A stretch of 64,000 nucleotides of DNA from a virus (taxonomy: Duplodnaviria > Caudoviricetes). The notes beneath the pieces are model-generated. The model was not told the origin of the DNA and did not search any database. It worked only from the letters and a program-made list of their open reading frames with translations. Both the position numbers and the translations under genes were made by a program. The DNA lies in IMG/VR virus record IMGVR_UViG_3300042914_002678. The stretch is one strand, 5' to 3'. Numbering within the stretch: the stretch's first letter is position 1; each line of letters begins with the position of its first letter. Positions 1,570-63,704 of the stretch are shown piece by piece.

Positions 1570-2580
1570 ATGACTGCTTCAATCGCTTCACGCCGTTCTG
1601 GCGAAAACCTCTGGGAACAATTTTGCCAGTGGGTAACTTCAACTGATAATCGTCTTTATGTCGGCTGGTTCGGAGTCCTCATGATTCCTTGCCTTCTTGC
1701 TGCTACGACTTGTTTCATCATCGCATTCATCGGTGCTCCCCCTGTGGACATTGATGGTATCCGTGAACCCGTTGCTGGTTCACTCATGTACGGAAACAAC
1801 ATCATCTCTGGTGCTGTGATTCCTTCGTCCAACGCAATTGGACTGCACTTTTATCCAATCTGGGAAGCTGCTTCCCTAGATGAGTGGCTGTACAACGGTG
1901 GTCCTTTCCAACTGGTTGTCTTCCACTTCCTGATTGGTATCTACGCTTATATGGGTCGTGAGTGGGAACTTTCTTACCGTCTAGGTATGCGTCCTTGGAT
2001 CTGCGTTGCATATTCTGCACCTGTTGCTGCTGCTTCTGCCGTATTCCTGGTCTATCCTTTCGGTCAAGGTTCTTTCTCTGACGCTATGCCTCTTGGCATC
2101 TCTGGTACTTTCAACTACATGCTTGTGTTCCAGGCAGAGCACAACATCCTGATGCACCCCTTCCACATGCTTGGTGTGGCTGGTGTGTTCGGCGGCAGCC
2201 TGTTCTCCGCCATGCACGGCTCGCTAGTGACCTCCTCCCTGGTGCGTGAAACCACCGAGAGCGAGTCCCAGAACTACGGCTACAAGTTCGGTCAAGAAGA
2301 AGAGACTTATAACATCGTTGCTGCTCATGGTTATTTCGGACGCCTTATTTTCCAATATGCCTCGTTCAACAACTCTCGTTCACTTCACTTCTTCCTTGCT
2401 GCTTGGCCTGTAGTTGGTATCTGGTTCACTGCTCTTGGTGTTAGCACCATGGCATTCAACCTCAACGGTTTCAACTTCAACCAGTCCATTATCGACTCAC
2501 AAGGTCGTGTGCTCAACACTTGGGCTGATGTTCTGAACCGTGCTGGACTCGGATTAGAGGTGATGCACGAACGCAACGCT
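1570..2580 (+). CDS. psbA: Photosystem II D1, exon 1 (337 codons)
   Basis: Canonical D1 sequence up to EVMHERNA, after which homology breaks. Confidence 0.97.
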
Positions 2581-2789
2581 CGATTTGTGGGCGCCCTTGC
2601 CTGAAAAGACAAGGTAAACTTCGGATGAATTGCTGGAAACCCTAACGGGCAATCAGCAGCCAAGCCCTAGACGCTTCTAGGGAAGGTTCAGAGACTAGGT
2701 GGTTTCCCAAGCGTGGGATGTAATACACCAATAGCGTCCGACACCTAACCTCATAAAGAGTATGGTGAAGATATAGTCCAAACTGGAAG
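2581..2789 (+). mobile_element. Group I self-splicing intron in psbA, 209 nt, no internal ORF
   Basis: 5' exon ends in U and the intron ends in G; P AATTGCTGGAAA (2628-2639), Q AATCAGCAG (2651-2659), R GTTCAGAGACTA (2686-2697), S AAGATATAGTCC (2768-2779); P3 TCGGATG/CGTCCGA; removal restores D1 in frame. Confidence 0.95.
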
Positions 2790-2861
2790 CACAACTTCCC
2801 ACTTGACCTTGCAGCAGCAGAAGCAACCCCAGTTGCTCTTACTGCTCCCGCAATCGGTTAA
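2790..2861 (+). CDS. psbA: Photosystem II D1, exon 2
   Basis: HNFPLDLAAAEATPVALTAPAIG*, giving a spliced D1 of 360 aa. Confidence 0.97.
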   Translation, partial: HNFPLDLAAAEATPVALTAPAIG

Positions 2862-2913: not shown

Positions 2914-2939
2914 ATGTAGTAGAGACAGCAGCAGTAAGA

Positions 2940-3515
2940 ATGAAACATAAACATCATATTGTTCCAAGACATATGGGTGGAACTGACGACCCATCAAATC
3001 TTATTGAACTGACTGTGGAAGAACACGCAGAGGCACACAGAAAGTTATGGGAGCAATATGGTAATATCAAAGATTATTGTGCTTGGAAAGGTTTAGAAGG
3101 AACCATTGGTAAAGAAGAAATCGTAAGGTTGCTGATGGACCCAACTGGAAGAGTTCATACAGAAGAAACCAAACAAAAAATTAGTCAATCACATAAAGGT
3201 AAATTGAAGCATACAGAAGAGAGTAAAGAAAAGTTGAGACAGTTTAGAACTGGTATGAAGTTGAGTGAAGAGCATAAGGCAAAAATATCAAAGAGTTTAG
3301 AAGGTAATACTTATATGGTTGGTAAAAAATTGAGTGATGAGACGAAGAAGAAAATAAGTGAGGCAGGTAAAGGTAATAAGAGAGCATCTGGTCCGCATAA
3401 TATTAGCGAAGAGGCAAAAAGAAATAGAAGTGAAGCAACAAAGGAAAGATGGAGACAATATAGAATATCAAAAGGACTTGACCCAGATAAAACTATTGAT
3501 GCACGATATAGATGA
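2940..3515 (+). CDS. Free-standing HNH homing endonuclease with NUMOD3 DNA-binding repeats
   Basis: N-terminal HHIVPRHMGGTDDPSNLIELTVEEHAEAH; repeats HTEETKQKISQSHKG, HTEESKEKL, LSEEHKAKISKSLEG and LSDETKKKISEAGKG. Confidence 0.88.
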   Translation: MKHKHHIVPRHMGGTDDPSNLIELTVEEHAEAHRKLWEQYGNIKDYCAWKGLEGTIGKEEIVRLLMDPTGRVHTEETKQKISQSHKGKLKHTEESKEKLRQFRTGMKLSEEHKAKISKSLEGNTYMVGKKLSDETKKKISEAGKGNKRASGPHNISEEAKRNRSEATKERWRQYRISKGLDPDKTIDARYR

Positions 3516-3528
3516 GTAGAAATTCCTA

Positions 3529-3557: not shown

Positions 3558-3583
3558 AAATATGAGAAACGATAATGGAGGTT

Positions 3584-4645
3584 ATGACTTCTTCTACTCT
3601 TTCACTGCCGAACCAACAAAAAGGTTGGTTTGATTTACTTGATGATTGGTTGAAGCGTGATAGGTTTGTGTTCGTTGGATGGAGTGGTTTATTGCTCTTT
3701 CCTTGTGCCTATCTTGCTCTTGGTGGATGGTTAACTGGAACGACATTTGTTACAAGTTGGTATACACACGGTATTGCTTCCAGTTATTTGGAAGGTTGCA
3801 ATTTTTTAACGTCTGCGGTAAGCACCCCAGCAGACGCTATGGGTCATTCTCTTCTTCTTCTCTGGGGTCCTGAAGCTCAGGGGGATATCGTCAGGTGGTT
3901 CCAACTTGGGGGACTCTGGCCTTTTGTGGCACTCCACGGGGCTTTCGCTCTAATCGGATTCATGCTTCGTCAGTTTGAGATTGCTCGTTTGGTAGGTATC
4001 CGTCCTTACAACGCAATCGCATTCTCTGGTCCTATTGCCGTATTTGTTTCAGTATTTCTAATGTATCCACTGGGTCAATCCAGCTGGTTCTTTGCTCCCT
4101 CCTTTGGTGTCGCAGCAATCTTCAGGTTCCTTCTGTTTCTTCAGGGTTTCCATAACTGGACTCTCAACCCCTTCCATATGATGGGAGTTGCTGGTATACT
4201 GGGAGGAGCACTACTCTGTGCGATTCACGGAGCAACTGTAGAAAACACACTTTATGAAGACAGTGATCAATCAAACACTTTCAAAGCATTTGAACCTACA
4301 CAGGAAGAAGAAACGTATTCAATGGTTACTGCAAACCGATTCTGGTCACAGATATTTGGTATTGCTTTTAGTAACAAGCGTTGGTTGCATTTCTTCATGC
4401 TATTTGTTCCTGTCATGGGTCTTTGGACTTCCAGCATTGGTATCATTGGTCTTGCCCTTAATCTACGTGCTTACGATTTTGTAAGTCAGGAGATTCGTGC
4501 TGCTGAAGACCCGGAATTTGAGACATTTTACACAAAAAATATACTTCTTAATGAGGGGTTAAGAGCGTGGATGGCACCTGTTGATCAGCCAGGGGAACGA
4601 TTTGTCTTTCCCGAGGAAGTTCTACCGAGAGGCAACGCACTCTAA
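3584..4645 (+). CDS. psbD: Photosystem II D2
   Basis: Canonical D2 from [21 protein letters not shown] to [10 protein letters not shown]; GGAGG RBS favours the ATG at 3584 over 3575. Confidence 0.97.
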
Positions 4646-4951: not shown

Positions 4952-5656
4952 ATGACTTACGATACAGTTTTCATTTCTGATATACATTTAGGAACACCTA
5001 GATGTAATAGTGAAAAGTTTCTGAAGTTTCTGAAAGAACTCAAAACTAAAAAGTTAGTGATGGTAGGTGATATTATAGACATCTACTGTATGGAAAAATA
5101 TAATACTCGTTGGGCAAAAGAACATACAGAATGCGTTCATCAGATTCTAAACCTTGCAAAGAAGGGGACAGAAATCGTTTATATACTTGGAAATCATGAA
5201 GGACAGATTCGTCGTTACACGAACTTTGAGCACGAGAACTTTCAAATGGTAGATGAGTATACACATAAAGACTCAAAGGGAAATAAGTTTCTTTGTATTC
5301 ACGGAGATAAGTATTCTGAGTATTCTTCTGGGTCTTGGAAACAACTCATTTTCAACAAAGGATATGAGATTATTACACCCCTGAGTTTGTGGTTGGAAAG
5401 ATTCTTCCGATTCTCTTTGGTGTATTTCTTAAAGAATAGTGTGCGTGGTAAGAATTATATCAATCAGTATGAGACTGATATTGCTTCTTATTGTGCTCAA
5501 AGAGATAAGAAGTATGATGGTGTAATATGTGGTCATATTCATTCGGCAAATATACGGTATTTTAATAAAATTCTGTATATGTGCTGTGGAGATTTTGTGG
5601 ATACTTGCTCTGCGATTGTGGAGAAAAATGGAATGTATGCATTGGAAAAATACTGA
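4952..5656 (+). CDS. Calcineurin-like metallophosphoesterase (LpxH/UDP-2,3-diacylglucosamine hydrolase-like)
   Basis: ISDIHLG, VGDIID, GNHE, HGD and GHIH motifs. Confidence 0.85.
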   Translation: MTYDTVFISDIHLGTPRCNSEKFLKFLKELKTKKLVMVGDIIDIYCMEKYNTRWAKEHTECVHQILNLAKKGTEIVYILGNHEGQIRRYTNFEHENFQMVDEYTHKDSKGNKFLCIHGDKYSEYSSGSWKQLIFNKGYEIITPLSLWLERFFRFSLVYFLKNSVRGKNYINQYETDIASYCAQRDKKYDGVICGHIHSANIRYFNKILYMCCGDFVDTCSAIVEKNGMYALEKY

Positions 5657-5697
5657 CCAAGATCTATGAAATAAATATTCATAAGTTGCAAGTACTT

Positions 5698-6069
5698 ATG
5701 AATATTCTCCAGTCGCCTCAAGACTACTTGTTCAATTTACAGACAACAAGTTCATCTGAAGCAAAACGATTATGGAGAAAGCAGATAAAAGAAAGTTGGA
5801 GTCATAAATGTGCTTACTGTAACTCCGAAGAAAATTTAACATTAGATCACGTTGTTCCACAATCAAAAGGTGGTTTAGATATTACAAGAAATGTAGTATG
5901 CTGTTGCCATTCTTGTAATCAATCTAAAGGTCATGAGTATTGGAAGTTATGGTATGTCCAACAAGACTTTTATAATGAAGATAGTTTGAATAAAATAGAA
6001 GACTGGATGAAACCTCCATTACCAACAAATCTTTACAGTTATCGTCCAAGAAGGAATAATGCTTCATGA
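5698..6069 (+). CDS. HNH endonuclease (McrA/HNH_5-like)
   Basis: CAYC...LTLDHVVPQSKGG...NVVCCCHSCNQSKG; start moved to the ATG at 5698. Confidence 0.85.
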   Translation: MNILQSPQDYLFNLQTTSSSEAKRLWRKQIKESWSHKCAYCNSEENLTLDHVVPQSKGGLDITRNVVCCCHSCNQSKGHEYWKLWYVQQDFYNEDSLNKIEDWMKPPLPTNLYSYRPRRNNAS

Positions 6070-7742: not shown

Positions 7743-10700
7743 ATGTCTATTAGAGTTAGATTGGGAACTGGAGAAGGAGATAATACACGGATTAGATTAG
7801 AATCCGGAGAAGGAAATGGTATTAAGGTAGTATCTAGCATTTATGGATCACAAGGTACTCAAGGTCTTCAAGGTTTAAGTAATCAAGGTGTTCAAGGATC
7901 TTTAAGTAATTTTCAAGGATCTCAAGGACTTCAGGGCAATCAAGGACTTCAAGGACACCAGGGAACTCAAGGTGCTCAAGGTCTTCAAGGTAATCAAGGT
8001 CTTCAAGGCAATCAAGGAACACAAGGAACTCAAGGTCTTCAGGGATTAAGTAATCAAGGGGTTCAAGGTCTTCAGGGAGATCAAGGAACTCAAGGTCTTC
8101 AAGGAACACAAGGTCTTCAAGGTTTAAGTAACCAAGGTGTTCAAGGTTTACAGGGTGAAAGGGGTGCTCAAGGATTTCAAGGTCTTCAGGGTCTTCAGGG
8201 TAATCAAGGTTTAAGTAATCAAGGTGTTCAAGGCACTCAAGGATTACAAGGATTTGCTGGAAGTTCGGGAGCAGTAGGACTTCAGGGTGCTGAGGGGTCT
8301 TTTGGTGGAGCTTCTTTTGAGTATTTGTACTATAATACTAGTGTTATAGACGAAGACCCTGGAAGTGGGAATGTAGGATTTAATACTGTACAGTTAAATT
8401 CTGCTTCTTACCTTTATATTAGTAAGATAGATTCAAATTCAACTGATTTAACTACTTTTATTAGAACTATTGACGATTCTACTTCCAATATTAAAGGTCA
8501 TTTTAGTATAAAACCAGAAGGATCTAATTTATCTTCTTTATTCTCTATAGTTGGGTTAAGTACTGAATATAGCGAGTATTTCAGTGTCCCTATAACATAT
8601 TTAAGTGGATCTGTTTCTTCATTAAATAATGATGATCTTATAGTACTTACTTTTGCAAGAACTGGTGATATTGGTGATACTGGTCTTCAAGGTAATCAAG
8701 GTCTTCAAGGACACCAGGGAACGCAAGGTCTTCAAGGAAATCAAGGTCTCCAAGGACATCAAGGTACTCAAGGTCTTCAAGGCACACAAGGTCTTCAGGG
8801 ATTAAGTAATCAAGGTGTTCAAGGTCTTCAGGGAGATCAAGGAACTCAGGGAACACAAGGTCTTCAAGGTTTAAGTAATCAAGGAACACAAGGTACTCAA
8901 GGTCTTCAGGGAGATCAAGGTACTCAAGGAACACAAGGTCTTCAAGGAAATCAAGGTCTCCAAGGACATCAAGGTACTCAAGGAACACAAGGTCTTCAAG
9001 GTGATCAAGGTCTTCAGGGAGATCAAGGTACTCAAGGTCTTCAAGGAGATCAAGGAACTCAAGGTACTCAAGGTCTTCAAGGTTTAAGTAATCAAGGTGT
9101 TCAAGGACTTCAAGGAGATCAAGGCGCTCAAGGTCTTCAAGGTACTCAAGGTCTTCAGGGATTAAGTAATCAAGGGGTTCAAGGTCTTCAGGGAGATCAA
9201 GGTACTCAAGGAACGCAAGGTCTTCAAGGAAATCAAGGAACACAAGGTCTTCAAGGTTTAAGTAATCAAGGGGTTCAAGGTCTTCAGGGAGATCAAGGTA
9301 CTCAAGGAACACAAGGTCTTCAAGGTACTCAAGGAACACAAGGTCTTCAAGGTACTCAAGGTCTTCAGGGAGATCAAGGTACTCAAGGAACACAAGGTCT
9401 TCAAGGTTTAAGTAATCAAGGTGTTCAAGGACTTCAAGGAGATCAAGGCACTCAAGGTCTTCAAGGTACTCAAGGTCTTCAAGGTTTAAGTAATCAAGGA
9501 ACCCAAGGTCTTCAAGGCACTCAAGGTCTTCAAGGTACTCAAGGTCTTCAAGGTTTAAGTAATCAAGGAACCCAAGGTCTTCAAGGCACTCAAGGTCTTC
9601 AAGGTACTCAAGGTCTTCAAGGTTTAAGTAATCAAGGAACACAAGGTACTCAAGGAACTCAAGGACTTCAAGGTACTCAAGGTCTTCAGGGAGATCAAGG
9701 TACTCAAGGGGCAGATGGAATTCAAGGTATATTTGGATCTTACAGTTCTTCAGCATTCAGATACACTTTTGACCTATCAATTTCAGAAACTGAACCAGAT
9801 CCTGGTCATATTAAATTTAACAATTCTAATTTTAGTTTATGTACTAAATTAATAATTTCTAAGAGTGATTTTTATAATGTTGGATTATCTACTTTTCTTG
9901 AAACTATAGATGATTCAACTTCAGACCATAAAGGATATTTTTCAGTTAAAGATTTAAATAATTATCAACATTATGTAATTTTTTCTATTAGTCCAAGTGA
10001 ATCTGGGTCAATATATCCAAATTACATAATTTTTAATTGTAGTTATGTTTCCGGAATTACAACCTCTCAACCACCATCTGAAATTGGAGATCCAATTTCA
10101 GATGTAATTATATCTTTTTCGAGAACTGGTGATCTAGGAGATCAGGGAGTTCAAGGTCTTCAGGGTGGTGGATCTCAAGGATTTCAAGGTCTTCAAGGAA
10201 ATCAAGGAACACAAGGTCTTCAAGGTTTAAGTAATCAAGGGGTTCAAGGTCTTCAGGGAGATCAAGGTACTCAAGGAACACAAGGTCTTCAAGGTACTCA
10301 AGGAACACAAGGTCTTCAAGGAAATCAAGGTCTCCAAGGACATCAAGGTACTCAAGGAACACAAGGTCTTCAAGGTGATCAAGGTCTTCAAGGTGATCAA
10401 GGTCTTCAGGGAGATCAAGGTACTCAAGGTCTTCAAGGAGATCAAGGAACTCAAGGTACTCAAGGTCTTCAAGGTTTAAGTAATCAAGGGATTCAAGGTC
10501 TTCAAGGAAATCAAGGTCTTCAAGGTACTCAAGGTCTAACAGGCCCTATAGCAGGTTCTGCAAATCAAATTGTTTATAAAGACGGATCTAATAATCCAAC
10601 TGGTTCTGGAAACCTGACTTTTGACGGCACTAATCTTTATGTTGGTGGTAATGTAACAATTGGCGGTACTAGTGTTCTAATTGCCGCCACTACATTAGTG

Positions 10701-13700
10701 GTAAATGATAAAGATATCATTGTTGGTCTTGCTACGACTGCTGGTGGTATTGTTATTTCTAATGATAATACCGCAAATCACGGTGGTATTGCTGTTGCAT
10801 CAACTGAAGGAAGTCCATTATTTAATATTAGTGCTGGTCTTGGTACTGATGATATTCCATCCACATATAAGCAGATTATGTGGTTGAAGTCTGGTACTTT
10901 GACTGGACTCAATACTGATGCGTGGTTATTTAATTATGCTGTAGGTGTTGGTACTGACCAAGTTCCAAATGGTGTAAGACTTGCTGCAGGTGCTATCAAT
11001 GTCTTAGATAATAAACTAAATGTAGCAGGAGATATTGATTTTAGTGGAACATTCTATCAAAATGGAAGTCCATTTGTAGCATCAAGATGGTCTGCTGGGA
11101 CTGGAGATGATATTTACAGATTGAATGGTAATGTTGGCATAAAAACATCATCTCCACAATCAGCACTTGATGTTCGTGGAACAATCTCAATTGGTAGAAC
11201 TGATGCTTCTACTGTAAACACTATTTACTCTGTTGTTGATATTAACTCTTGGGAGTATGGTGGTATAAGTCTTGCAGTTGGTGGACAAGATACTGCACCA
11301 ACAGACATTTACTTCAAAGATGATGGAACCAAGATGTTTATTCTTGGTGATACTGGAAATGATGTAAATGAATATGCACTTTCTACTGCTTGGGAAGTAA
11401 ATACTGCAACATTTACAACTAACTTTGTTGTTGGGGGACAAGAAACTTTTCCAACAGGTTTATATTTTAAACCAGATGGAACCAGAATGTATATCTGTGG
11501 TCAAACTGGGGTTTCTCCAACTGGTGATAGAGTTTATTCTTATACATTAAGCAATCCTTGGTCTCTTGTTGGAGTTACTACCGATACTGTTGCTGGTGCT
11601 GGAACCACTGTTAAAAACTTTAATGTAGGAGCAAATGATACTGGACCACAAGGACTTTATTTTAAAGATGATGGAACTAAGATGTATGTGGTTGGTTCCA
11701 CTGGTGATGCGGTTTATGAATATACAGTTTCTACTGCCTGGGAAATTGATTCAACTGTAACTCTTAATCATACACTTTTGATTGGCGCGACAAATACTCA
11801 AAATCTTCCACTGACTCTGACTGCTCCAACGGGTATTGATTTTAATGATACTGGAATCAAGATGTATATTACGGATTCAGCCCGTGATTTAGTTGCAAGA
11901 TTTGATTTATCTACTCCTTGGGACTTAAGTACTGCAGTATTTTATGATAATGTTTATGTTGGTTTCCAAGATCTTACTCCAAATGGAATATTTTATCAAG
12001 AAGACCAATCAAAGGCATATGTAGTTGGTGATAGTAATAATACTGTTTATCAATACAATACTGATGTTCCTTCACTTGAATTTGCATCTTCTGGTATTTC
12101 CACAAGGTCTTCGGTCATCATTAATAATGAAGCAAGATTAAAAAATCGTCTTTATGTAACTGATACTGCTCATTTTAGCAGACCAGTTACAGTTAAGGAA
12201 TCACTCCAAATTGATGGTGCTGTTGCAACAAGTAGTAACCTTACAGTTTCTGGTGGAACAATAACTACAGGAAACGTTGCTGCGACACTTCTTAGTGGTA
12301 ATACTACTACCAACATCACTCTGGCAAGTGGACAAACTTCAGGAACATTAATTGTTGGTGGTGCTTCACAAACTGGAACTATAACAATAGACCAGTCTGC
12401 TTCTGGTCATATTTTAAATATTGCTACTGGTGCTAATGCTTCTGGAGTAGGAAAAACTGTTAATATTGCAACTGGTGGTGCTTCTGGTTCCAGAACTTTA
12501 ATCACTGTTGGTTCTGCTGTTGCTGGTGCTGCAAGTACAGTCTTCATTCCATCACCAACTAGTCTTGGTATTGGAATCACAAATCCAGGAGCAACTTTAA
12601 ATGTAGTTCCAACAACCACAAGTATTGCTGGATTGTTCTCTGGAACCACATCAAGTGATATGGTTCGCATTACTCAACTTGGTTCTGGTAATGCTCTGGT
12701 AGTTGAAGATTCTGCTAATCCCGATGCAACTCCTTTTGTTGTTAGTGCTGATGGTTCAGTTGGTATCGGAACCACAAATCCATTAGGACCTTTACATTTA
12801 CAAAGTAATACTCCAATTATAAGATTTGCAGAATCTGATGCATCCGCAAATAATAGAAATTGGAATGTTGGTGTTAATAACCAAGAGTTTTATTGGCAAG
12901 CACTAAGTGATGTTGGAAGTGGTGGTGGTAATTTATTTAAATTTACTAGAAGTGCTGAACAAATTCAAACTTTTGAAGGTTTGAATGGTGGAGTTACTTG
13001 GTTTGAAGTTGATAACAGTACTCAAAGAGTTGGTATCGGAACTTCAATTGCATCAGCAGTTCTTGATGTTCGTGGAACTCCTTGGTTCTCTCCAAATACC
13101 ACAGGTGTAAAGGCAACAGCATTAAGACTTGGAACACTTGTTGATGGTGTTAATGCTGCCTTTGATATTATTACCAATGATAATACTGGAGATGATATTG
13201 AAGTCCAAAGCAATCGTTTTACTGGAAAATTAAGATTCAGTAGAAGTTCTCCATCTGGTATTCAGACAACATTTATACTTGATTCTAACTATCTAACTGG
13301 AACAAGTATTTCAATTGCCGATACAACAGGAACCACAACAAAAATAAAAATTGACGAAGCAGGAAATACTTTCTTTAACAATAGTGGAGCAGTATTAGTC
13401 GGCACTGCTACATCAACAGGAACCGCATCACAAAGACTTCAAGTTACTGGTGGTGCTTATGTTTCTGGTAATACTGGAATAGGAACTACAAATCCATCAG
13501 ATCCTTTAGACGTAAATGGAAATATAAGAGTTCGTTCTGCCCTTAAAGATTATTATGGAAATGTAGGTGCTGCGGGATCTGTTTTAACTGTTGTTGGTGC
13601 TGGTATTGGAGTAAGTTGGACTCCTCCATTTGCGGCAGGACTTCAAGGTACACAAGGACTTCAGGGACTTCAAGGTACTCAAGGACTTCAAGGCAATCAA

Positions 13701-14870
13701 GGACTTCAAGGTACACAAGGACTTCAGGGACTTCAAGGTACTCAAGGTCTTCAAGGTACTCAAGGTCTTCAAGGTACTCAAGGACTGCAGGGTACTCAAG
13801 GACTCCAAGGTAATCAAGGACTCCAAGGTAATCAAGGACTTCAAGGTACTCAAGGTCTTCAAGGACTTCAAGGCAATCAAGGTCTTCAAGGACACCAGGG
13901 AACTCAAGGTCTTCAAGGTAATCAAGGCAATCAAGGACTTCAAGGTGCTCAAGGTCTTCAAGGTAATCAAGGACTTCAAGGTCTTCAAGGACTTCAGGGA
14001 GATCAAGGAACTCAGGGTACTCAAGGACTTCAGGGATTAAGTAATCAAGGGGTTCAAGGTCTTCAGGGAGATCAAGGAACTCAGGGTACTCAAGGACTTC
14101 AGGGAGATCAAGGAACTCAGGGTACTCAAGGACTTCAAGGTAATCAAGGACTTCAAGGTCTTCAAGGACTTCAGGGAGATCAAGGAACTCAAGGTACTCA
14201 AGGACTTCAAGGTAATCAAGGACTTCAAGGTCTTCAAGGACTTCAGGGAGATCAAGGAACTCAAGGTACTCAAGGTCTTCAGGGTACTCAAGGTGCTCAA
14301 GGACTTCAAGGTAATCAAGGATTGCAAGGCACTCAAGGACTTCAAGGTAATCAAGGATTGCAAGGCACTCAAGGACTTCAAGGTAATCAAGGAAGGCAAG
14401 GCACTCAAGGACTTCAAGGTAATCAAGGATTGCAAGGCACTCAAGGACTTCAAGGTAATCAAGGAAGGCAAGGACTTCAGGGACTTATTGGAACTCCTAT
14501 TCCATGGACAGTAAAAACTGCAAATTACACTGCTGTTGCAAAAGACCAAATACTCGCCAATACCTCTGGTGGATCTTTTACTATTACTTTACCAGCATCT
14601 CCATCTTCTGGTGATTATATTCGTATTGGTGATGACAACGATTGGTTTACTAATAATTTAACAGTCGCTAGAAATGGAAGTACAATTGAAGGATTGAGTG
14701 ATGATTTTGTATTAGATATTAAGGGAATTATAGTTGAGTTTGTTTATAATGGTTCTACATGGCAAGTTTATTCTTATGCTGGTCCAGCGGGCGCTCAAGG
14801 TACTACTGGATCTAGTACAAGTGGTGGTGGAACTGGTGATATTTTAGAGATTATGTTATTTGCACTATAA
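7743..14870 (+). CDS. Giant collagen-like tail/virion fibre protein, 2375 aa
   Basis: Several long Gly-X-Gln tracts, two duplicated non-collagen domains, propeller-like repeats (PTGLYFKPDGTRMY, STAW..) and a C-terminal ANTSGGSFTITLPASP fibre domain. Confidence 0.85.
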   Translation: MSIRVRLGTGEGDNTRIRLESGEGNGIKVVSSIYGSQGTQGLQGLSNQGVQGSLSNFQGSQGLQGNQGLQGHQGTQGAQGLQGNQGLQGNQGTQGTQGLQGLSNQGVQGLQGDQGTQGLQGTQGLQGLSNQGVQGLQGERGAQGFQGLQGLQGNQGLSNQGVQGTQGLQGFAGSSGAVGLQGAEGSFGGASFEYLYYNTSVIDEDPGSGNVGFNTVQLNSASYLYISKIDSNSTDLTTFIRTIDDSTSNIKGHFSIKPEGSNLSSLFSIVGLSTEYSEYFSVPITYLSGSVSSLNNDDLIVLTFARTGDIGDTGLQGNQGLQGHQGTQGLQGNQGLQGHQGTQGLQGTQGLQGLSNQGVQGLQGDQGTQGTQGLQGLSNQGTQGTQGLQGDQGTQGTQGLQGNQGLQGHQGTQGTQGLQGDQGLQGDQGTQGLQGDQGTQGTQGLQGLSNQGVQGLQGDQGAQGLQGTQGLQGLSNQGVQGLQGDQGTQGTQGLQGNQGTQGLQGLSNQGVQGLQGDQGTQGTQGLQGTQGTQGLQGTQGLQGDQGTQGTQGLQGLSNQGVQGLQGDQGTQGLQGTQGLQGLSNQGTQGLQGTQGLQGTQGLQGLSNQGTQGLQGTQGLQGTQGLQGLSNQGTQGTQGTQGLQGTQGLQGDQGTQGADGIQGIFGSYSSSAFRYTFDLSISETEPDPGHIKFNNSNFSLCTKLIISKSDFYNVGLSTFLETIDDSTSDHKGYFSVKDLNNYQHYVIFSISPSESGSIYPNYIIFNCSYVSGITTSQPPSEIGDPISDVIISFSRTGDLGDQGVQGLQGGGSQGFQGLQGNQGTQGLQGLSNQGVQGLQGDQGTQGTQGLQGTQGTQGLQGNQGLQGHQGTQGTQGLQGDQGLQGDQGLQGDQGTQGLQGDQGTQGTQGLQGLSNQGIQGLQGNQGLQGTQGLTGPIAGSANQIVYKDGSNNPTGSGNLTFDGTNLYVGGNVTIGGTSVLIAATTLVVNDKDIIVGLATTAGGIVISNDNTANHGGIAVASTEGSPLFNISAGLGTDDIPSTYKQIMWLKSGTLTGLNTDAWLFNYAVGVGTDQVPNGVRLAAGAINVLDNKLNVAGDIDFSGTFYQNGSPFVASRWSAGTGDDIYRLNGNVGIKTSSPQSALDVRGTISIGRTDASTVNTIYSVVDINSWEYGGISLAVGGQDTAPTDIYFKDDGTKMFILGDTGNDVNEYALSTAWEVNTATFTTNFVVGGQETFPTGLYFKPDGTRMYICGQTGVSPTGDRVYSYTLSNPWSLVGVTTDTVAGAGTTVKNFNVGANDTGPQGLYFKDDGTKMYVVGSTGDAVYEYTVSTAWEIDSTVTLNHTLLIGATNTQNLPLTLTAPTGIDFNDTGIKMYITDSARDLVARFDLSTPWDLSTAVFYDNVYVGFQDLTPNGIFYQEDQSKAYVVGDSNNTVYQYNTDVPSLEFASSGISTRSSVIINNEARLKNRLYVTDTAHFSRPVTVKESLQIDGAVATSSNLTVSGGTITTGNVAATLLSGNTTTNITLASGQTSGTLIVGGASQTGTITIDQSASGHILNIATGANASGVGKTVNIATGGASGSRTLITVGSAVAGAASTVFIPSPTSLGIGITNPGATLNVVPTTTSIAGLFSGTTSSDMVRITQLGSGNALVVEDSANPDATPFVVSADGSVGIGTTNPLGPLHLQSNTPIIRFAESDASANNRNWNVGVNNQEFYWQALSDVGSGGGNLFKFTRSAEQIQTFEGLNGGVTWFEVDNSTQRVGIGTSIASAVLDVRGTPWFSPNTTGVKATALRLGTLVDGVNAAFDIITNDNTGDDIEVQSNRFTGKLRFSRSSPSGIQTTFILDSNYLTGTSISIADTTGTTTKIKIDEAGNTFFNNSGAVLVGTATSTGTASQRLQVTGGAYVSGNTGIGTTNPSDPLDVNGNIRVRSALKDYYGNVGAAGSVLTVVGAGIGVSWTPPFAAGLQGTQGLQGLQGTQGLQGNQGLQGTQGLQGLQGTQGLQGTQGLQGTQGLQGTQGLQGNQGLQGNQGLQGTQGLQGLQGNQGLQGHQGTQGLQGNQGNQGLQGAQGLQGNQGLQGLQGLQGDQGTQGTQGLQGLSNQGVQGLQGDQGTQGTQGLQGDQGTQGTQGLQGNQGLQGLQGLQGDQGTQGTQGLQGNQGLQGLQGLQGDQGTQGTQGLQGTQGAQGLQGNQGLQGTQGLQGNQGLQGTQGLQGNQGRQGTQGLQGNQGLQGTQGLQGNQGRQGLQGLIGTPIPWTVKTANYTAVAKDQILANTSGGSFTITLPASPSSGDYIRIGDDNDWFTNNLTVARNGSTIEGLSDDFVLDIKGIIVEFVYNGSTWQVYSYAGPAGAQGTTGSSTSGGGTGDILEIMLFAL
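7850..14490 (+). repeat. Interspersed 9-bp codon-triplet tandem arrays (CAAGGTCTT/CAAGGTACT-like)
   Basis: Arrays at about 7850-8290, 8680-9710, 10140-10540 and 13640-14490. Confidence 0.9.
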
Positions 14871-52667: not shown

Positions 52668-55600
52668 CCAGAATTAGAATCTATTATACAGATAGACCAC
52701 CTGAGGAAATTAATGACTTAGAAGTCAACACAATTAGTGTTGGTGGTACTATTAGTATTGGTGGAACTTCTATTACTGGTGTTGGCGGATCTGTTGGTAT
52801 TGGATCTACTCTTCCACGTTATAATTTAGATGTTGGTGGAGACATTAATTTTTCTGGTAGTCTTTATCAAAATGGCACTCTTTTCTCTGGTGGTGGAGGA
52901 GGTGGTGGTTTACAGGTGTCTCAAGGACTTCAAGGATCTTTAAGTAATTTTCAAGGAACTCAAGGACCTTTAAGTAATTTTCAAGGAACACAAGGACTCC
53001 AAGGAGCACAAGGACGCCAAGGATCTCAAGGGGCACAGAGTCTTCAAGGATCTTTAAGTAATTTTCAAGGAACTCAAGGTACTCAAGGACTTCAAGGAAA
53101 TCAAGGACTTCAAGGAAATCAAGGACTTCAGGGTCTTCAAGGATCTTTAAGTAATTTTCAAGGTACTCAAGGTCTTCAAGGGAACCAAGGATTACAGGGA
53201 ACCCAAGGTCTTCAAGGTAATCAAGGTCTTCAAGGTAATCAAGGTCTTCAAGGTAATCAAGGTCTTCAAGGTAATCAAGGACTTCAAGGGAACCAAGGAT
53301 TACAGGGAACTCAAGGTCGTCAAGGACTTCAAGGAAATCAAGGACTTCAAGGAAATCAAGGACTTCAAGGAAATCAAGGACTTCAAGGAAATCAAGGACT
53401 TCAGGGTCTTCAAGGATCTTTAAGTAATTTTCAAGGTACTCAAGGGGCACAGGGTCTTCAAGGATCTTTAAGTAATTTTCAAGGTACTCAAGGGGCACAA
53501 GGAACCCAAGGTCTTCAAGGGGCACAAGGTACTCAAGGTCTTCAAGGTAATCAAGGTCTTCAAGGACATCAAGGAACCCAAGGTCTTCAAGGTAATCAAG
53601 GTCTTCAAGGTAATCAAGGTCTTCAAGGACATCAAGGAACCCAAGGTCTTCAAGGCAATCAAGGTCTTCAAGGAGATCAAGGAACTCAAGGTAATCAAGG
53701 TCTTCAAGGACATCAAGGAACTCAAGGTCTTCAGGGAAACCAAGGATTGCAGGGAGATCAAGGCACTCAAGGAACACAAGGTCTTCAGGGAGATCAAGGT
53801 ACTCAAGGAACCCAAGGTCTTCAAGGACATCAAGGTCTTCAAGGTAATCAAGGTCTTCAAGGACATCAAGGAACCCAAGGTCTTCAAGGTAATCAAGGTA
53901 CTCAAGGATTGCAAGGAAATCAGGGTCTTCAGGGGAACCAAGGATTACAAGGAAATCAGGGTCTTCAGGGGAACCAAGGATTACAAGGAAATCAAGGATT
54001 ACAAGGACATCAAGGTACTCAAGGATTACAAGGAAATCAGGGTCTTCAGGGTGATCAAGGAACTCAGGGAACACAAGGTCTTCAGGGTGATCAAGGTACT
54101 CAAGGTCTTCAAGGTAATCAAGGTCTTCAAGGACTTCAAGGTAATCAAGGTCTTCAAGGTAATCAAGGTCTTCAAGGTTTAAGTAATCAAGGAACACAAG
54201 GTCTTCAAGGTACTCAAGGACTTCAAGGTACTCAAGGTCTTCAAGGTAATCAAGGTCTTCAAGGTTTAAGTAATCAAGGAACACAAGGTCTTCAAGGTAC
54301 TCAAGGACTTCAAGGTACTCAAGGTCTTCAAGGCACTCAAGGTCTTCAAGGTTTAAGTAATCAAGGAACCCAAGGTCTTCAAGGCACTCAAGGTCTTCAA
54401 GGTACTCAAGGTCTTCAAGGTTTAAGTAATCAAGGAACACAAGGTCTCCAAGGACTTCAAGGTGATCAAGGCACTCAAGGTCTTCAAGGCACTCAAGGTC
54501 TTCAAGGTACTCAAGGACTTCAAGGTACTCAAGGTCTTCAAGGCACTCAAGGTCTTCAAGGCACTCAAGGTCTTCAAGGCACTCAAGGTCTTCAAGGTAC
54601 TCAAGGACTTCAAGGTACTCAAGGTCTTCAAGGTAATCAAGGTAATCAAGGTCTTCAAGGTAATCAAGGTCTTCAAGGACATCAAGGAACCCAAGGTCTT
54701 CAGGGGAACCAAGGATTACAGGGACAACAAGGAACTCAGGGAGCAGGATTCGATAAAATTTTTAATGACCTTACAAGTAATGAAATAAAATATGTTGGAT
54801 TTTTAACACAAAGTAGTGGATCTATATCAACAATATTCACTTCTTCGGAAAAATTAACATTCATACCTTCATCTGGTAGTCTTGGAGTAGGAACTTCTAG
54901 TCCATATTCAAACACTTCATTAACTGTTGTTGGAACTGCAACTGCTACAAATTATCTTGGTGATGGATCTGGATTAGTTGGAATTGTAACTCAATTAGTT
55001 TCTGGAATAGGCATTGATCTTAATCCAACTAATGGTAAAGGTAAAGTATCAATAACCTCTTATAAACCAATTGGAAAAACCATTTATGTTTCTCAAACTG
55101 GAAATGATAGTAACACTGGACTAGCAGAAAATCATCCAAAAAGAACGATTAAAAATGCAGCAGGAATTGCAAGTTCTGGCGATACGATTAAAGTTTTTCC
55201 AGGTGTATATGTTGAAGATAATCCAGTAATCTTACAAAAAACAGTTTCTGTTGAAGGAACAGAACTTAGAAATTGTATGATTACTCCACAAAATTCTGGA
55301 TTAGATTTGTTCTATGTTAATAATGGTTGTCATTTAACAGATTTAAGTTTTGTTGGTCCAGAATCAACTAATGGTGCGGCAATTGTTGCTTTCCAACCGT
55401 TGGCAGGAGTTTCTTCTGATAGATTTTTTGACGGCGCAAGAATGATTCGTATGAATCTAGATTTCATTGCTTCCGAAGCAGTTGGATATTTAACAAGTAC
55501 AAATTATAAAAATCCAGCGTTTGTTGTCCCAACAGGAAATCCAAATGATTGTAAAGATGATGTAAAAGATGTGTTCAGAGCAGTCTGTCATGACATTACA

Positions 55601-57151
55601 AGAGGTGGAAATTCAAAATGTGTTGGTGCTGGAAAGTCTTATTATAATGGTGCAACTCTTCTTCATATTACTGGAACAGATACGAATGGTTATAGTGTTA
55701 AAGACGCAACAATTGATACTTTAAAATATGCGATTGGAATTGCCTTCTCGTGTATTAATAATGTTTTATGGACTGGAAATCATCAAAGTGTGAATACTCA
55801 AATAAGAGATTTAAGTATTCAATCTGATGGAGCAACAAATTATAATTTATTAAATTGTTCTAATGTTCTTTCTGCAGTCCATACTTGTGTCGGTGTTGTC
55901 ACTACGATTATCAGAGATGGATTATCTGGTTCTGGAATTAATACAACATATCCGTCAGATTATGACGGTCAAACTGGAAATAATTGGTCCTTAAGTAAAA
56001 TTGGATTGACAACTTACTCTCCTGGGGTTGGAAATATCACACAAGGCCCTTATGTAAGAAACTGTACAAACTTTATACCAAATAGTATTGGACTGAAAGT
56101 TGACGGATTTCACGCAGAACCTGGAGATTTGGATGATTTTGGTGTCACAGGATCCATGTCCGTTGACTCTTATACTCAATATAATCAGGGTGGAATTGGC
56201 GTTTCAATTACAAACGGCGCTTATGCTCAGTTAGTTTCAATTTTCACGATATGTAATGATATAGGGCACTGGACTTCTGGTGGTGGACAATGTGATATTA
56301 CAAACTCAAATTGTTCTTTTGGAAATAAAGGTTTAGTTTCTAATGGAGTCGGTGATGCAGAATCTAGATCAATTTATCGTTATACTGGAAATGTAGTAAA
56401 TGAAGTAATATTTGATAGTGATAATTCAGATACGGTTGTAATTTCTGGGGTTGGAAATAATCGTCCGTATGATGGTCAGGCAATATATTTTGATAAACTA
56501 TATTATCAGGTTCAATCAATTCAAGTTACAAATAATGGTTCTGGATATTCGCCAACAAATCCCCCAACCATTGTATTTTCAAATCCGACAGGAGAAAATG
56601 GACTTACTGCAGAAGCTTCTGTGAATGTTTCTAATAATGGAACGATTATTTCAATAGACGTTAATAATACTGGTTCCCAATATCTAATGAATCCAGGATA
56701 CTCCATTAATCATAATGGTGGAGTTGGTCTCGCATTTACAACAACTCTATACCCAATTTTTTATGGAATAGAAAGTGCTTCATTGCCAGTGTCTGGAATT
56801 TCTACTGTAGTTTTACAACAGAATCTAAATAATACAGTCAGTACTGGAACTACTGTTTATTTTTCAAGATTAAGTTTACAACTTGCAACTACAATTTCTT
56901 TAGAGTGGGTTGGTAGCGGAATTGATATTAATACTGCAAAACCTTCTTTAGGTGGTGTTACAATTCCAGAAAATGAATTTGTAATGTTAGATGGTGGTAA
57001 AATTATATTTACTGGTACAAATCAATCTGGAAACTTTAGAATCGGACCAGACGTAACTATAAATCAGCTTACGGGAACAATCAGTGGAAGAGCGTTCAAT
57101 CAAAGTTTGTTAAATACAGTAACACCTTTAATTATTGCATTAGGAATATAA
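52664..57151 (+). CDS. Collagen-like fibre with a C-terminal pectin-lyase-like beta-helix, 1495 aa
   Basis: GxQ tract about 52920-54740; TIYVSQTGNDSNTG..PKRTIKNA...GDTIKV.PGVY.E. Confidence 0.82.
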   Translation: MTRIRIYYTDRPPEEINDLEVNTISVGGTISIGGTSITGVGGSVGIGSTLPRYNLDVGGDINFSGSLYQNGTLFSGGGGGGGLQVSQGLQGSLSNFQGTQGPLSNFQGTQGLQGAQGRQGSQGAQSLQGSLSNFQGTQGTQGLQGNQGLQGNQGLQGLQGSLSNFQGTQGLQGNQGLQGTQGLQGNQGLQGNQGLQGNQGLQGNQGLQGNQGLQGTQGRQGLQGNQGLQGNQGLQGNQGLQGNQGLQGLQGSLSNFQGTQGAQGLQGSLSNFQGTQGAQGTQGLQGAQGTQGLQGNQGLQGHQGTQGLQGNQGLQGNQGLQGHQGTQGLQGNQGLQGDQGTQGNQGLQGHQGTQGLQGNQGLQGDQGTQGTQGLQGDQGTQGTQGLQGHQGLQGNQGLQGHQGTQGLQGNQGTQGLQGNQGLQGNQGLQGNQGLQGNQGLQGNQGLQGHQGTQGLQGNQGLQGDQGTQGTQGLQGDQGTQGLQGNQGLQGLQGNQGLQGNQGLQGLSNQGTQGLQGTQGLQGTQGLQGNQGLQGLSNQGTQGLQGTQGLQGTQGLQGTQGLQGLSNQGTQGLQGTQGLQGTQGLQGLSNQGTQGLQGLQGDQGTQGLQGTQGLQGTQGLQGTQGLQGTQGLQGTQGLQGTQGLQGTQGLQGTQGLQGNQGNQGLQGNQGLQGHQGTQGLQGNQGLQGQQGTQGAGFDKIFNDLTSNEIKYVGFLTQSSGSISTIFTSSEKLTFIPSSGSLGVGTSSPYSNTSLTVVGTATATNYLGDGSGLVGIVTQLVSGIGIDLNPTNGKGKVSITSYKPIGKTIYVSQTGNDSNTGLAENHPKRTIKNAAGIASSGDTIKVFPGVYVEDNPVILQKTVSVEGTELRNCMITPQNSGLDLFYVNNGCHLTDLSFVGPESTNGAAIVAFQPLAGVSSDRFFDGARMIRMNLDFIASEAVGYLTSTNYKNPAFVVPTGNPNDCKDDVKDVFRAVCHDITRGGNSKCVGAGKSYYNGATLLHITGTDTNGYSVKDATIDTLKYAIGIAFSCINNVLWTGNHQSVNTQIRDLSIQSDGATNYNLLNCSNVLSAVHTCVGVVTTIIRDGLSGSGINTTYPSDYDGQTGNNWSLSKIGLTTYSPGVGNITQGPYVRNCTNFIPNSIGLKVDGFHAEPGDLDDFGVTGSMSVDSYTQYNQGGIGVSITNGAYAQLVSIFTICNDIGHWTSGGGQCDITNSNCSFGNKGLVSNGVGDAESRSIYRYTGNVVNEVIFDSDNSDTVVISGVGNNRPYDGQAIYFDKLYYQVQSIQVTNNGSGYSPTNPPTIVFSNPTGENGLTAEASVNVSNNGTIISIDVNNTGSQYLMNPGYSINHNGGVGLAFTTTLYPIFYGIESASLPVSGISTVVLQQNLNNTVSTGTTVYFSRLSLQLATTISLEWVGSGIDINTAKPSLGGVTIPENEFVMLDGGKIIFTGTNQSGNFRIGPDVTINQLTGTISGRAFNQSLLNTVTPLIIALGI

Positions 57152-57152
57152 A

Positions 57153-57500
57153 ATGGCAGTAGTTGCACTTAATAAATTTAGAACAATAAGATATAATTTA
57201 ACAACCGCAAATGTTGGAATATATACATGTCCCGCTGGAGTAGCATCGATTATTATTTTATCTCAAGTATCAAATACTTCTTCGGGTATTGTATCAGTAA
57301 CTGCATATCATTCTAGAACTTCAGAGTCTCCAAGTGATACTAGTTTAAGTGCTCAGGTTCCAATACCACCAAAAGACGGTTATAATATAGTTTCTGACGG
57401 CAGACTTGTTTTAGAAACTAATGATATTTTCAAAGTTCAAGCGAGTGAAAATAACGCCTTAACTTTAGTATTAAGTGTTTTAGAAACTGCAAAACAGTGA
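57153..57500 (+). CDS. ~115-aa adapter-like virion protein
   Basis: Follows a fibre gene; same layout as 14895. Confidence 0.75.
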   Translation: MAVVALNKFRTIRYNLTTANVGIYTCPAGVASIIILSQVSNTSSGIVSVTAYHSRTSESPSDTSLSAQVPIPPKDGYNIVSDGRLVLETNDIFKVQASENNALTLVLSVLETAKQ

Positions 57501-57510
57501 TAAAGATAAA

Positions 57511-63557: not shown

Positions 63558-63629
63558 GGGAGTATAGCTTAATGGTTAGAGCGGGCTCCTTATAAGGGCT
63601 TAGTCTGGGTTCAACTCCCAGTATTCCCA
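63558..63629 (+). tRNA. tRNA-Ile(UAU), no encoded CCA
   Basis: Acceptor GGGAGTA/TATTCCC, anticodon loop CT-TAT-AA, T-loop TTCAACT. Confidence 0.85.
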
Positions 63630-63631
63630 TC

Positions 63632-63704
63632 GCTCCTTTAGCAATCTGGTGAATGCAGCGAACTCATAATTCGCCTGAGGCGTGTTCGATCCACGCAAGG
63701 AGCA
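63632..63704 (+). tRNA. tRNA with a CAU anticodon (elongator Met or Ile2), no encoded CCA
   Basis: Acceptor GCTCCTT/AAGGAGC, loop CT-CAT-AA, T-arm GCGTG-TTCGATC-CACGC; lacks initiator features. Confidence 0.85.

Follow-up and report, generated by a model that had tools for sequence, protein, structure and literature searches.

How does a phage make D1 from a psbA gene whose reading frame, from position 1570, reads as normal D1 as far as ...EVMHERNA, runs on into RFVGALA and then stops at a TGA (2602-2604), and what kind of element separates this point from the rest of the protein? Group I introns of cyanophage psbA, with the free-standing nucleases that accompany them, serve as the textbook example of a possible origin of mobile introns. 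The gene lies in a 64,000-nt stretch of DNA, here called the window (IMG/VR record IMGVR_UViG_3300042914_002678, Caudoviricetes), which is part of a T4-like cyanomyovirus, is found mainly in lake and freshwater metagenome runs and carries a psbA only about 84% identical to those of cultured phages. The local gene order is a PhotoRC-II leader motif, psbA, an HNH-NUMOD3 gene and psbD (3575-4645). The PhotoRC-II RNA motif occupies the psbA 5' leader, outside the intron (1439-1532, + strand; Rfam RF01717, 86.1 bits, E 1e-13). Elsewhere in the window are two adjacent tRNA genes (63558-63704) and long repetitive collagen-like coding tracts (about 7800-14500 and 52900-59750), the latter giving hundreds of self-similar BLAST matches against contig L124.

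Exon 1 of psbA (1570-2580, + strand), defined by the list of open reading frames and by phmmer, encodes residues 1-337 of the window protein and ends ...CAC GAA CGC AAC GCT; its product matches solved D1 chains with E 1e-210, query residues 2-337 falling on chain residues 2-336. Exon 2 (2790-2861, + strand), supported by the reading frame and by metatranscriptome contigs, begins at the CAC of His337 at 2790, reads HNFPLDLAAAEATPVALTAPAIG to the C-terminus and closes with TAA at 2859-2861. The list of open reading frames misses this second exon, as had been pointed out, the exon-1 frame ending at TGA 2602-2604; gene callers would cut D1 short at this point, and primers for psbA-based diversity surveys will miss intron-bearing alleles or give them the wrong size. 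A terminator-like stem-loop with a U-run follows the gene (2869-2895, + strand), read from the sequence and kept in sibling contigs.

We propose that nucleotides 2581-2789 (+ strand) constitute a functional, ORF-less, IA-like group I ribozyme of 209 nt, and we put the probability of this reading, taken together with the family and partner history set out below, at roughly 0.85. The original prediction was a minimal 209-nt group I intron between Ala336 and His337, within the Mn-cluster-ligand C-terminus of D1, and three lines of evidence bear it out: the D1 frame, the rule that such introns follow a U and end in G, and Rfam. The full-length Intron_gpI model (RF00028) matches 2571-2801 with 80.6 bits (E 7e-19) against a gathering score of 50, and runs past the true intron ends by 10 nt at the 5' side and 12 nt at the 3' side. 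The coding sequence permits just two junctions, and only 2580/2581 with 2789/2790 combines a preceding U with a terminal G, so that the length is 209 nt and the junction reads GCU (Ala336) before and CAC (His337) after an intron ending in G; the same junction occurs in 16 loci of the window's intron class among the matches listed. In standard numbering the site is Ala336/His337, as had been stated, because the phmmer comparison sets residue 337 of the window protein against residue 336 of solved D1; in the protein's own numbering it is codons 337/338. The label 'minimal' holds only in a relative sense: 209 nt is near-minimal, but introns at the site used in phage S-PM2 go down to 199-202 nt. 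One such short intron lies at 12689-12887 on the - strand of contig L069 (IMGVR_UViG_3300005611_000357). As to subgroup, the P7.1/P7.2 element that IA introns carry between P7 and P3' is present, and the P9 that follows P7' is absent inside the window intron.

The secondary structure (all elements on the + strand) begins with a 9-nt internal guide sequence, UUGUGGGCG (2585-2593), which is invariant in 11 relatives and specific to its site. Nucleotides 2590-2593 pair with exon-1 CGCU in P1, and UUGUG (2585-2589) pairs with exon-2 CACAA (2790-2794) in P10, the pairing with the ligated exons CGCU·CACAA being continuous. P1 (2577-2582/2588-2593), read from the sequence and likewise invariant in the 11 relatives, comprises six pairs, C2577-G2593, G2578-C2592, C2579-G2591, U2580·G2590, C2581-G2589 and G2582·U2588, and thereby places a U·G wobble at the 5' splice site. 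The pairing of CGCU/C with GGGCG around a U-G, the P10 helix and the terminal G (2789) had all been predicted and were found at these positions. P2 (2595-2601/2608-2614) shows compensatory changes in four of its seven pairs. P3, of 7 bp (2621-2627/2735-2741), is 100% paired with one compensatory pair. The P and Q elements form P4-P5 (2631-2658), with P4 at 2631-2636/2653-2658 and P5 at 2640-2642/2647-2649, on the evidence of the Rfam alignment, covariation, minimum-free-energy (MFE) folding and RNAalifold. P6/P6a (2659-2687), placed by the alignment of relatives, has its P6a stem at 2665-2670/2677-2682, and in the 11-relative alignment this stem is swapped wholesale for other perfect helices (CCCUAG/CUAGGG versus CCAAUCA/UGAUUGG, CCUCACA/UGUGAGG and CCACCA/UGGUGG). 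P7 is an invariant 5-bp helix between 2693-2697, within the R element GUUCAGAGACUA, and 2774-2778, within the S element AAGAUAUAGUCC; both elements are canonical, and the helix is seen in the covariation alignment and by Rfam. P8 spans 2742-2767 (covariation alignment, MFE, RNAalifold).

The extra hairpin that had been noticed between P7 and P3 is a P7.1/P7.2-type extension (2698-2729) of two nested stems, outer 2698-2701/2726-2729 and inner 2705-2709/2714-2718, which is 100% paired with five of nine pairs compensatory. Two independent predictions, MFE folding and RNAalifold, both contain P1, P2, P3, P4, P5, P6a, P7.1/7.2 and P8. Covariation over 11 distinct relatives supports the predicted P3-P8 core with its P3/P7 pseudoknot: 98.4% of cells form standard pairs and compensatory double changes occur in 11 pairs, compared with 31-40% of cells paired in a control in which the 3' partners were slid. 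With the canonical R and S elements and the Rfam alignment, this agrees with the complete P/Q/R/S core and P3 claimed from the sequence alone.

The claim that did not survive is that of a very short P9. Only 11 nt (CAAACUGGAAG) follow the 3' strand of P7 and only 10 nt (AAACUGGAAG) follow the S element, and we conclude that there is no internal P9, because nothing else remains and the sole hairpin available there borrows exon 2. This hairpin spans the 3' splice site (2785-2799; RNAalifold, 98% paired), with GGAAG (2785-2789, including the terminal G) pairing with exon-2 CUUCC (2795-2799) around a loop, CACAA, that is the P10 partner. It is kept in 10 of 11 variants and reaches 7 bp in locus L022, where both the intron and the exon sides differ. 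The missing internal P9, or the pairing of the terminal G with exon 2, could slow the second step of splicing.

Is the site simply that of the known cyanophage intron? S-PM2 (AJ630128) carries a 212-nt intron between CGU (Arg334) and AAU (Asn335), 6 nt upstream of the window site, in line with what had been noted (about 212 nt, near codons 334/335). An S-SRM01 intron occupies the same R334/N335 site, and intron 2 of S-CBWM1 (MG450654), annotated as 227 nt and 230 nt long by reading frame, lies between CAU (His337) and AAC (Asn338), 3 nt downstream of the window site. Alignment of the exon junctions with these three phages thus gave a different site in every case, which upholds the suggestion that the window uses a neighbouring, distinct position. 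From IMG/VR and isolates we collected 82 phage psbA introns (55 unique) in motif-based scans, the counts of which are samples rather than censuses; all follow a U and end in G, with 55 at R334/N335, 16 (including the window) at A336/H337 and 11 at H337/N338. A maximum-likelihood tree of the unique introns places the window's class in a clade of its own, with support of 100/99 and a long stem (0.34), and changes of site label are minimal because each site class falls on one side of a branch.

The guides tell the same three classes apart. Pairing at the own site amounts to 6 bp for R334/N335, 4+5 for A336/H337 and 4 for H337/N338, and to less than 2 elsewhere; the window-class guide makes 4 bp of P1 and 5 bp of P10 at its own site and less than 1 bp at the S-PM2 site, its P10 averaging 5.06 contiguous bp at home and 0-0.4 at neighbouring sites. 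Within the H337/N338 class, exon and guide covary (ACAU:GUGU versus CCAU:GUGG). BLAST of the window intron to S-PM2 aligned only 77 nt of core, at 84.6% identity. Clade support, this core-only similarity and a guide that fits its own site alone together argue that the lineage is distinct, as had been inferred.

No record among 50,697 phage records covers at least 80% of the window intron by BLAST, and its class occurs in no cultured phage among them; the clade comprises at least 15 IMG/VR contigs. The check for a described intron matching in both site and sequence returned none from these records, with the site itself populated in IMG/VR contigs. In cellular genomes a scan for the exon-intron junction gave 10 matches in unrelated MAGs where chance alone predicts 8.7, none with the intron core motifs and so no sign of the intron there, and the class was not found in species-representative prokaryote genomes. 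In the reviews and later papers that were covered, the psbA introns named are the 212-bp one of S-PM2 and metagenomic ones called 'widespread', and the I-CreII and chloroplast-genome papers give no algal psbA intron site near nt 1008.

Compared with S-PM2, the window intron shares the gene, the C-terminal Mn-ligand region, a small ORF-less build, identical R and S elements, a P3-P7 core about 85% identical and a nuclease gene in the psbA-psbD gap. The two differ in site, the window's A336/H337 lying 6 nt downstream (GCU/CAC rather than CGU/AAU), in guide (GGGCG rather than GCGCUC), in clade, in P2, P6a and P7.1/7.2, in the P9 hairpin that S-PM2 has and the window intron lacks internally, and in the neighbouring nuclease, which in the window is HNH-NUMOD3 and not Endo VII-type. 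Intron 2 of S-CBWM1 is closer in position, at an adjacent site in the same codon block, has a similar P7.1/7.2 element (GGUGG...GUAAUACACC) and groups weakly with the window's clade in the tree; unlike the window intron, its H337/N338 class measures 233-240 nt in IMG/VR, has an internal 3' domain and uses the guide GUGG or GUGU.

The A336/H337 position is also used by a second, unrelated intron lineage, present in at least 40 further IMG/VR contigs (for example L058) with lengths of 251-259 nt. Its GCU/CAC junction and terminal G are the same, and its 5' guide region (AGAUUUGUUGGUG) is similar, but the core (AAUCGGGUUAAACGGGGAAAC...) is unrelated and instead resembles that of the intron at the Met331 site in L023 and L118. 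The window site is thus distinct from that of S-PM2 yet well populated, because at least 15 and at least 40 uncultured phage contigs, respectively, use it. As a side observation, the AAUCGGGUUAAACGGGGAAAC... core sits at the Met331 site in L023 and L118 and at A336/H337 in L058, which on sequence comparison looks like a second example of an intron lineage changing site. Among the matches listed, 24 of 34 second-lineage introns are followed by an unclassified ORF without a Pfam hit. A family of ORFs of about 200 aa (MGTKRPHCRRDWDK...), also without a Pfam hit, fills the nuclease slot in L022, L123 and L019 and lies downstream of psbA in 24 loci of this second lineage; it may be an undescribed homing endonuclease.

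Further psbA genes show how densely this region can be interrupted. In L127 (11561-11576, - strand; also in L131 and L132) a 16-nt micro-exon, GCATGAACGYAACGCT, is flanked by group I introns at the Met331 site (AU/G) and at A336/H337, and Rfam recognizes four group I introns in this one gene. Among cultured phages, S-SRM01 (L003, MW015081; 780-3185) has a psbA interrupted three times or more: by an intron that contains a nuclease ORF, by another at ...IVA/AHGYF and by another at the S-PM2 site; just two 'partial D1' coding sequences are annotated in its record, the last two exons being unannotated.

That the intron is removed from RNA is suggested by X16 and X18, two metatranscriptome runs of a single study, represented by short assembled contigs. 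In X18 a 116-nt contig carries 29 nt of exon-1 end (...CATGAACGCAACGCT) joined straight to 2790-2876; its exon-1 end reads ...GGTCATGCATGAACGCAACGCT and the part corresponding to 2790-2876 has 3 mismatches. An X16 contig begins to match at 2790, after 14 unmatched letters; a further X16 joint, from 2492 to 2790 (side 23), carries no weight. Both runs also contain intron-bearing contigs, with a 211-nt variant. RNA depth over exon 1 is swamped by the psbA of other organisms and says nothing of expression. The joined RNA contigs could conceivably represent an intronless allele never sampled as DNA. A search of 2.9 million viral contigs (IMG/VR) did not find the 29-nt sequence across the joined exons, and 241 million metagenome records gave it a single time, in a psbA whose second exon differs; 10 of 11 fetched alleles with an exon-1 end no more than 3 mismatches from that of X18 carry an intron. 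The evidence for splicing at exactly 2580/2790 is good but indirect, the RNA contigs coming from a close relative with another allele.

Under the proposed mechanism, the phage could make D1 only once the intron had been removed. The guide (2585-2593) would hold exon-1 CGCU and exon-2 CACAA, an external guanosine would attack after U2580, and the freed 3'-OH of exon 1 would then attack after the terminal G2789 and join Ala336 to His337. Unspliced RNA would meet a stop seven codons into the intron and give a D1 without the Mn-cluster ligands His337, Asp342 and Ala344.

How the intron reached its present site can be approached through its neighbours. Introns with 100% and 99.5% identity to the window's are present in L128 and L125, respectively, in exons that at 50-600 nt upstream of the junction are only 77-87% identical to the window; over the last 50 nt of exon 1 the values are 98% in L128 and 64% in L125. 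The exon comparison is ungapped, with L128, L125, L032 and L123 as informative loci and loci with further upstream introns left out. A near-identical intron in a diverged exon 1 reads as a signature of recent lateral spread. Among the matches listed, an ORF like the nuclease F-CphI lies downstream of psbA in 58 of 79 intron-bearing loci, and an F-CphI-family (Endo VII-motif) ORF in 9 of the 16 loci of the window's class; Pfam confirmed three F-CphI-like ORFs as Endo VII-motif. Conversely, all 71 close F-CphI homologues with a readable psbA end, among the matches listed, accompany an intron at codons 334-338, and none an intronless gene. This agrees with PMC3428280 and PMC6083498. PMC6083498 describes S-PM2 and S-RSM88 as having a 212-nt psbA group I intron and the free-standing endonuclease F-CphI; with reference to Zeng 2009 it states that F-CphI cleaves intronless psbA and that the S-PM2 intron blocks self-cleavage.

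In the window the corresponding place is taken by a free-standing HNH endonuclease gene with three NUMOD3 motifs (2940-3515, + strand), which starts 78 nt downstream of the psbA stop, scores 4.9e-17 for NUMOD3 and 3.6e-4 for HNH in Pfam, and encodes a protein 34% identical to T4 MobE; the X16/X18 metatranscriptome contigs give no RNA cover over it. L128 has an Endo VII-type ORF exactly in this slot, with both flanks homologous. Aligned side by side, window 2914-3527 and L128 4724-5116 present a clean gene swap between psbA and psbD, a 191-aa HNH-NUMOD3 protein in one and a 123-aa Endo VII-type protein in the other, with flanks 89% and 81% identical. A second HNH gene (HNH_5) lies at 5581-6069 of the window, and its homologues are directly downstream of psbA in L044 and L093.

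The architecture invites the idea that the intron and the HNH-NUMOD3 gene are a collaborative-homing pair, the nuclease cutting intronless psbA near A336/H337 and the intron protecting the genome that carries it. A free-standing endonuclease gene does adjoin the intron-bearing gene, in the slot held by F-CphI in S-PM2, and its architecture is one found in free-standing homing endonucleases of phages, among them T4 MobE, which mobilizes the neighbouring nrdB intron in trans (PMC2790892); both systems combine an HNH and NUMOD3 free-standing enzyme with a gene whose group I intron lacks a working endonuclease. The window system nevertheless differs from MobE/nrdB in that relatives of its nuclease adjoin intronless psbA: among the matches listed, a homologue (70-91% identity) lies downstream of psbA in 12 IMG/VR contigs whose psbA end can be read, and none of the 12 has an intron at codons 334-338, so that an enzyme never found with an intronless allele describes the F-CphI family and not the window's HNH. 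These intronless neighbours share no common distinguishing substitution at the site (L146 reads AACGCT/CAT). The window is, moreover, the only one of about 80 intron-bearing loci, among the matches listed, with an HNH-NUMOD3 nuclease, and the identical intron of L128 occurs with an Endo VII-type ORF instead. We regard such a partnership as improbable. The HNH-NUMOD3 nuclease is probably not the homing partner of the window intron and looks like an ordinary MobE-like free-standing endonuclease that took over the slot; the intron would not be required for immunity to it, and by analogy with T4 MobE and the nrdB intron the nuclease could co-convert the intron.

Three other accounts of the element itself deserve consideration. 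That it is merely the S-PM2 intron at the S-PM2 site with its junction mis-assigned might be argued from the roughly 85% identity of the P3-P7 core over 77 nt and from the UUGUG also found near the 5' end of many S-PM2-type introns; yet ...HERNA is complete in exon 1 and H is the first residue of exon 2, a junction placed as in S-PM2 would leave Asn-Ala duplicated or missing, only 2580/2581 and 2789/2790 provide the U and the G, and the intron falls in a separate clade with a guide that fits A336/H337 only, leaving this account with virtually no credibility. Hardly more plausible, to our minds, is a decaying relic that no longer splices, psbA being a pseudogene in the window phage. Although the intron has no internal P9 and no ORF, and the partner nuclease family is missing from the locus, the core helices are all intact and compensatory changes preserve them in 11 variants, P1 and P10 pair perfectly, a complete D1 frame is retained across both exons, and joined-exon contigs are present in RNA runs. 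A mainly regulatory role, in which light- or redox-dependent splicing tunes D1 synthesis along the lines suggested for S-PM2, is compatible with the ribozyme reading and less remote, if still unlikely. The S-PM2 psbA intron is spliced throughout infection and responds to light, which shifts its spliced/unspliced ratio (PMC5931967), and the hairpin that hides the terminal G, its loop being the P10 partner, could act as a gate on the second step; against this, most cyanophage psbA genes have no intron, and the strict tie to one nuclease family points to selfish spread.

Returning to the functional, ORF-less ribozyme that we favour, we infer a small cyanophage psbA intron family whose separate clades would have been retargeted to R334/N335, A336/H337 and H337/N338, within 9 bp. 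The family appears tied to F-CphI-type nucleases, because their neighbours are intron-bearing in 71 of 71 cases and those of the HNH type in 0 of 12, and it would spread and persist by interrupting the target of such enzymes encoded just downstream of psbA. In the window phage the F-CphI slot would now be held by the unrelated MobE-like HNH-NUMOD3 nuclease, and the intron would therefore persist as a neutral self-splicing passenger. Judging from co-occurrence only, it probably still makes the phage immune to F-CphI-type enzymes that co-infecting phages bring in, and it may also undergo co-conversion with whichever nuclease gene adjoins.

The kind of element, a cyanophage psbA group I intron, is already known; new are its site, its guide, the lack of P9 and its neighbour. 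The window adds a second insertion site in use, two codons away from the classic position and with its own retargeted guide; a near-minimal 209-nt ribozyme predicted to work without an internal P9; and a natural case of a 100% identical intron beside two unrelated nuclease genes in different phages. Among the matches listed, nucleases of the F-CphI type are never associated with an intronless site and those of the HNH type almost always are. More speculatively, and with the odds somewhat against it, codons 331-338 may be a hot spot at which at least four independent lineages were retargeted 3-6 nt apart, two of them sharing A336/H337, all in immunity to or hitch-hiking with F-CphI, and at which an intron can outlive its partner. 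The main value of the locus is comparative, since it points to a hot spot of insertion at which guides were retargeted and to nuclease partners that were exchanged in nature. If this is true and not already tabulated in the 2009-2010 papers, these introns would constitute a natural series for target-site change in group I introns, and the same series would test how partnerships between introns and endonucleases form and dissolve.
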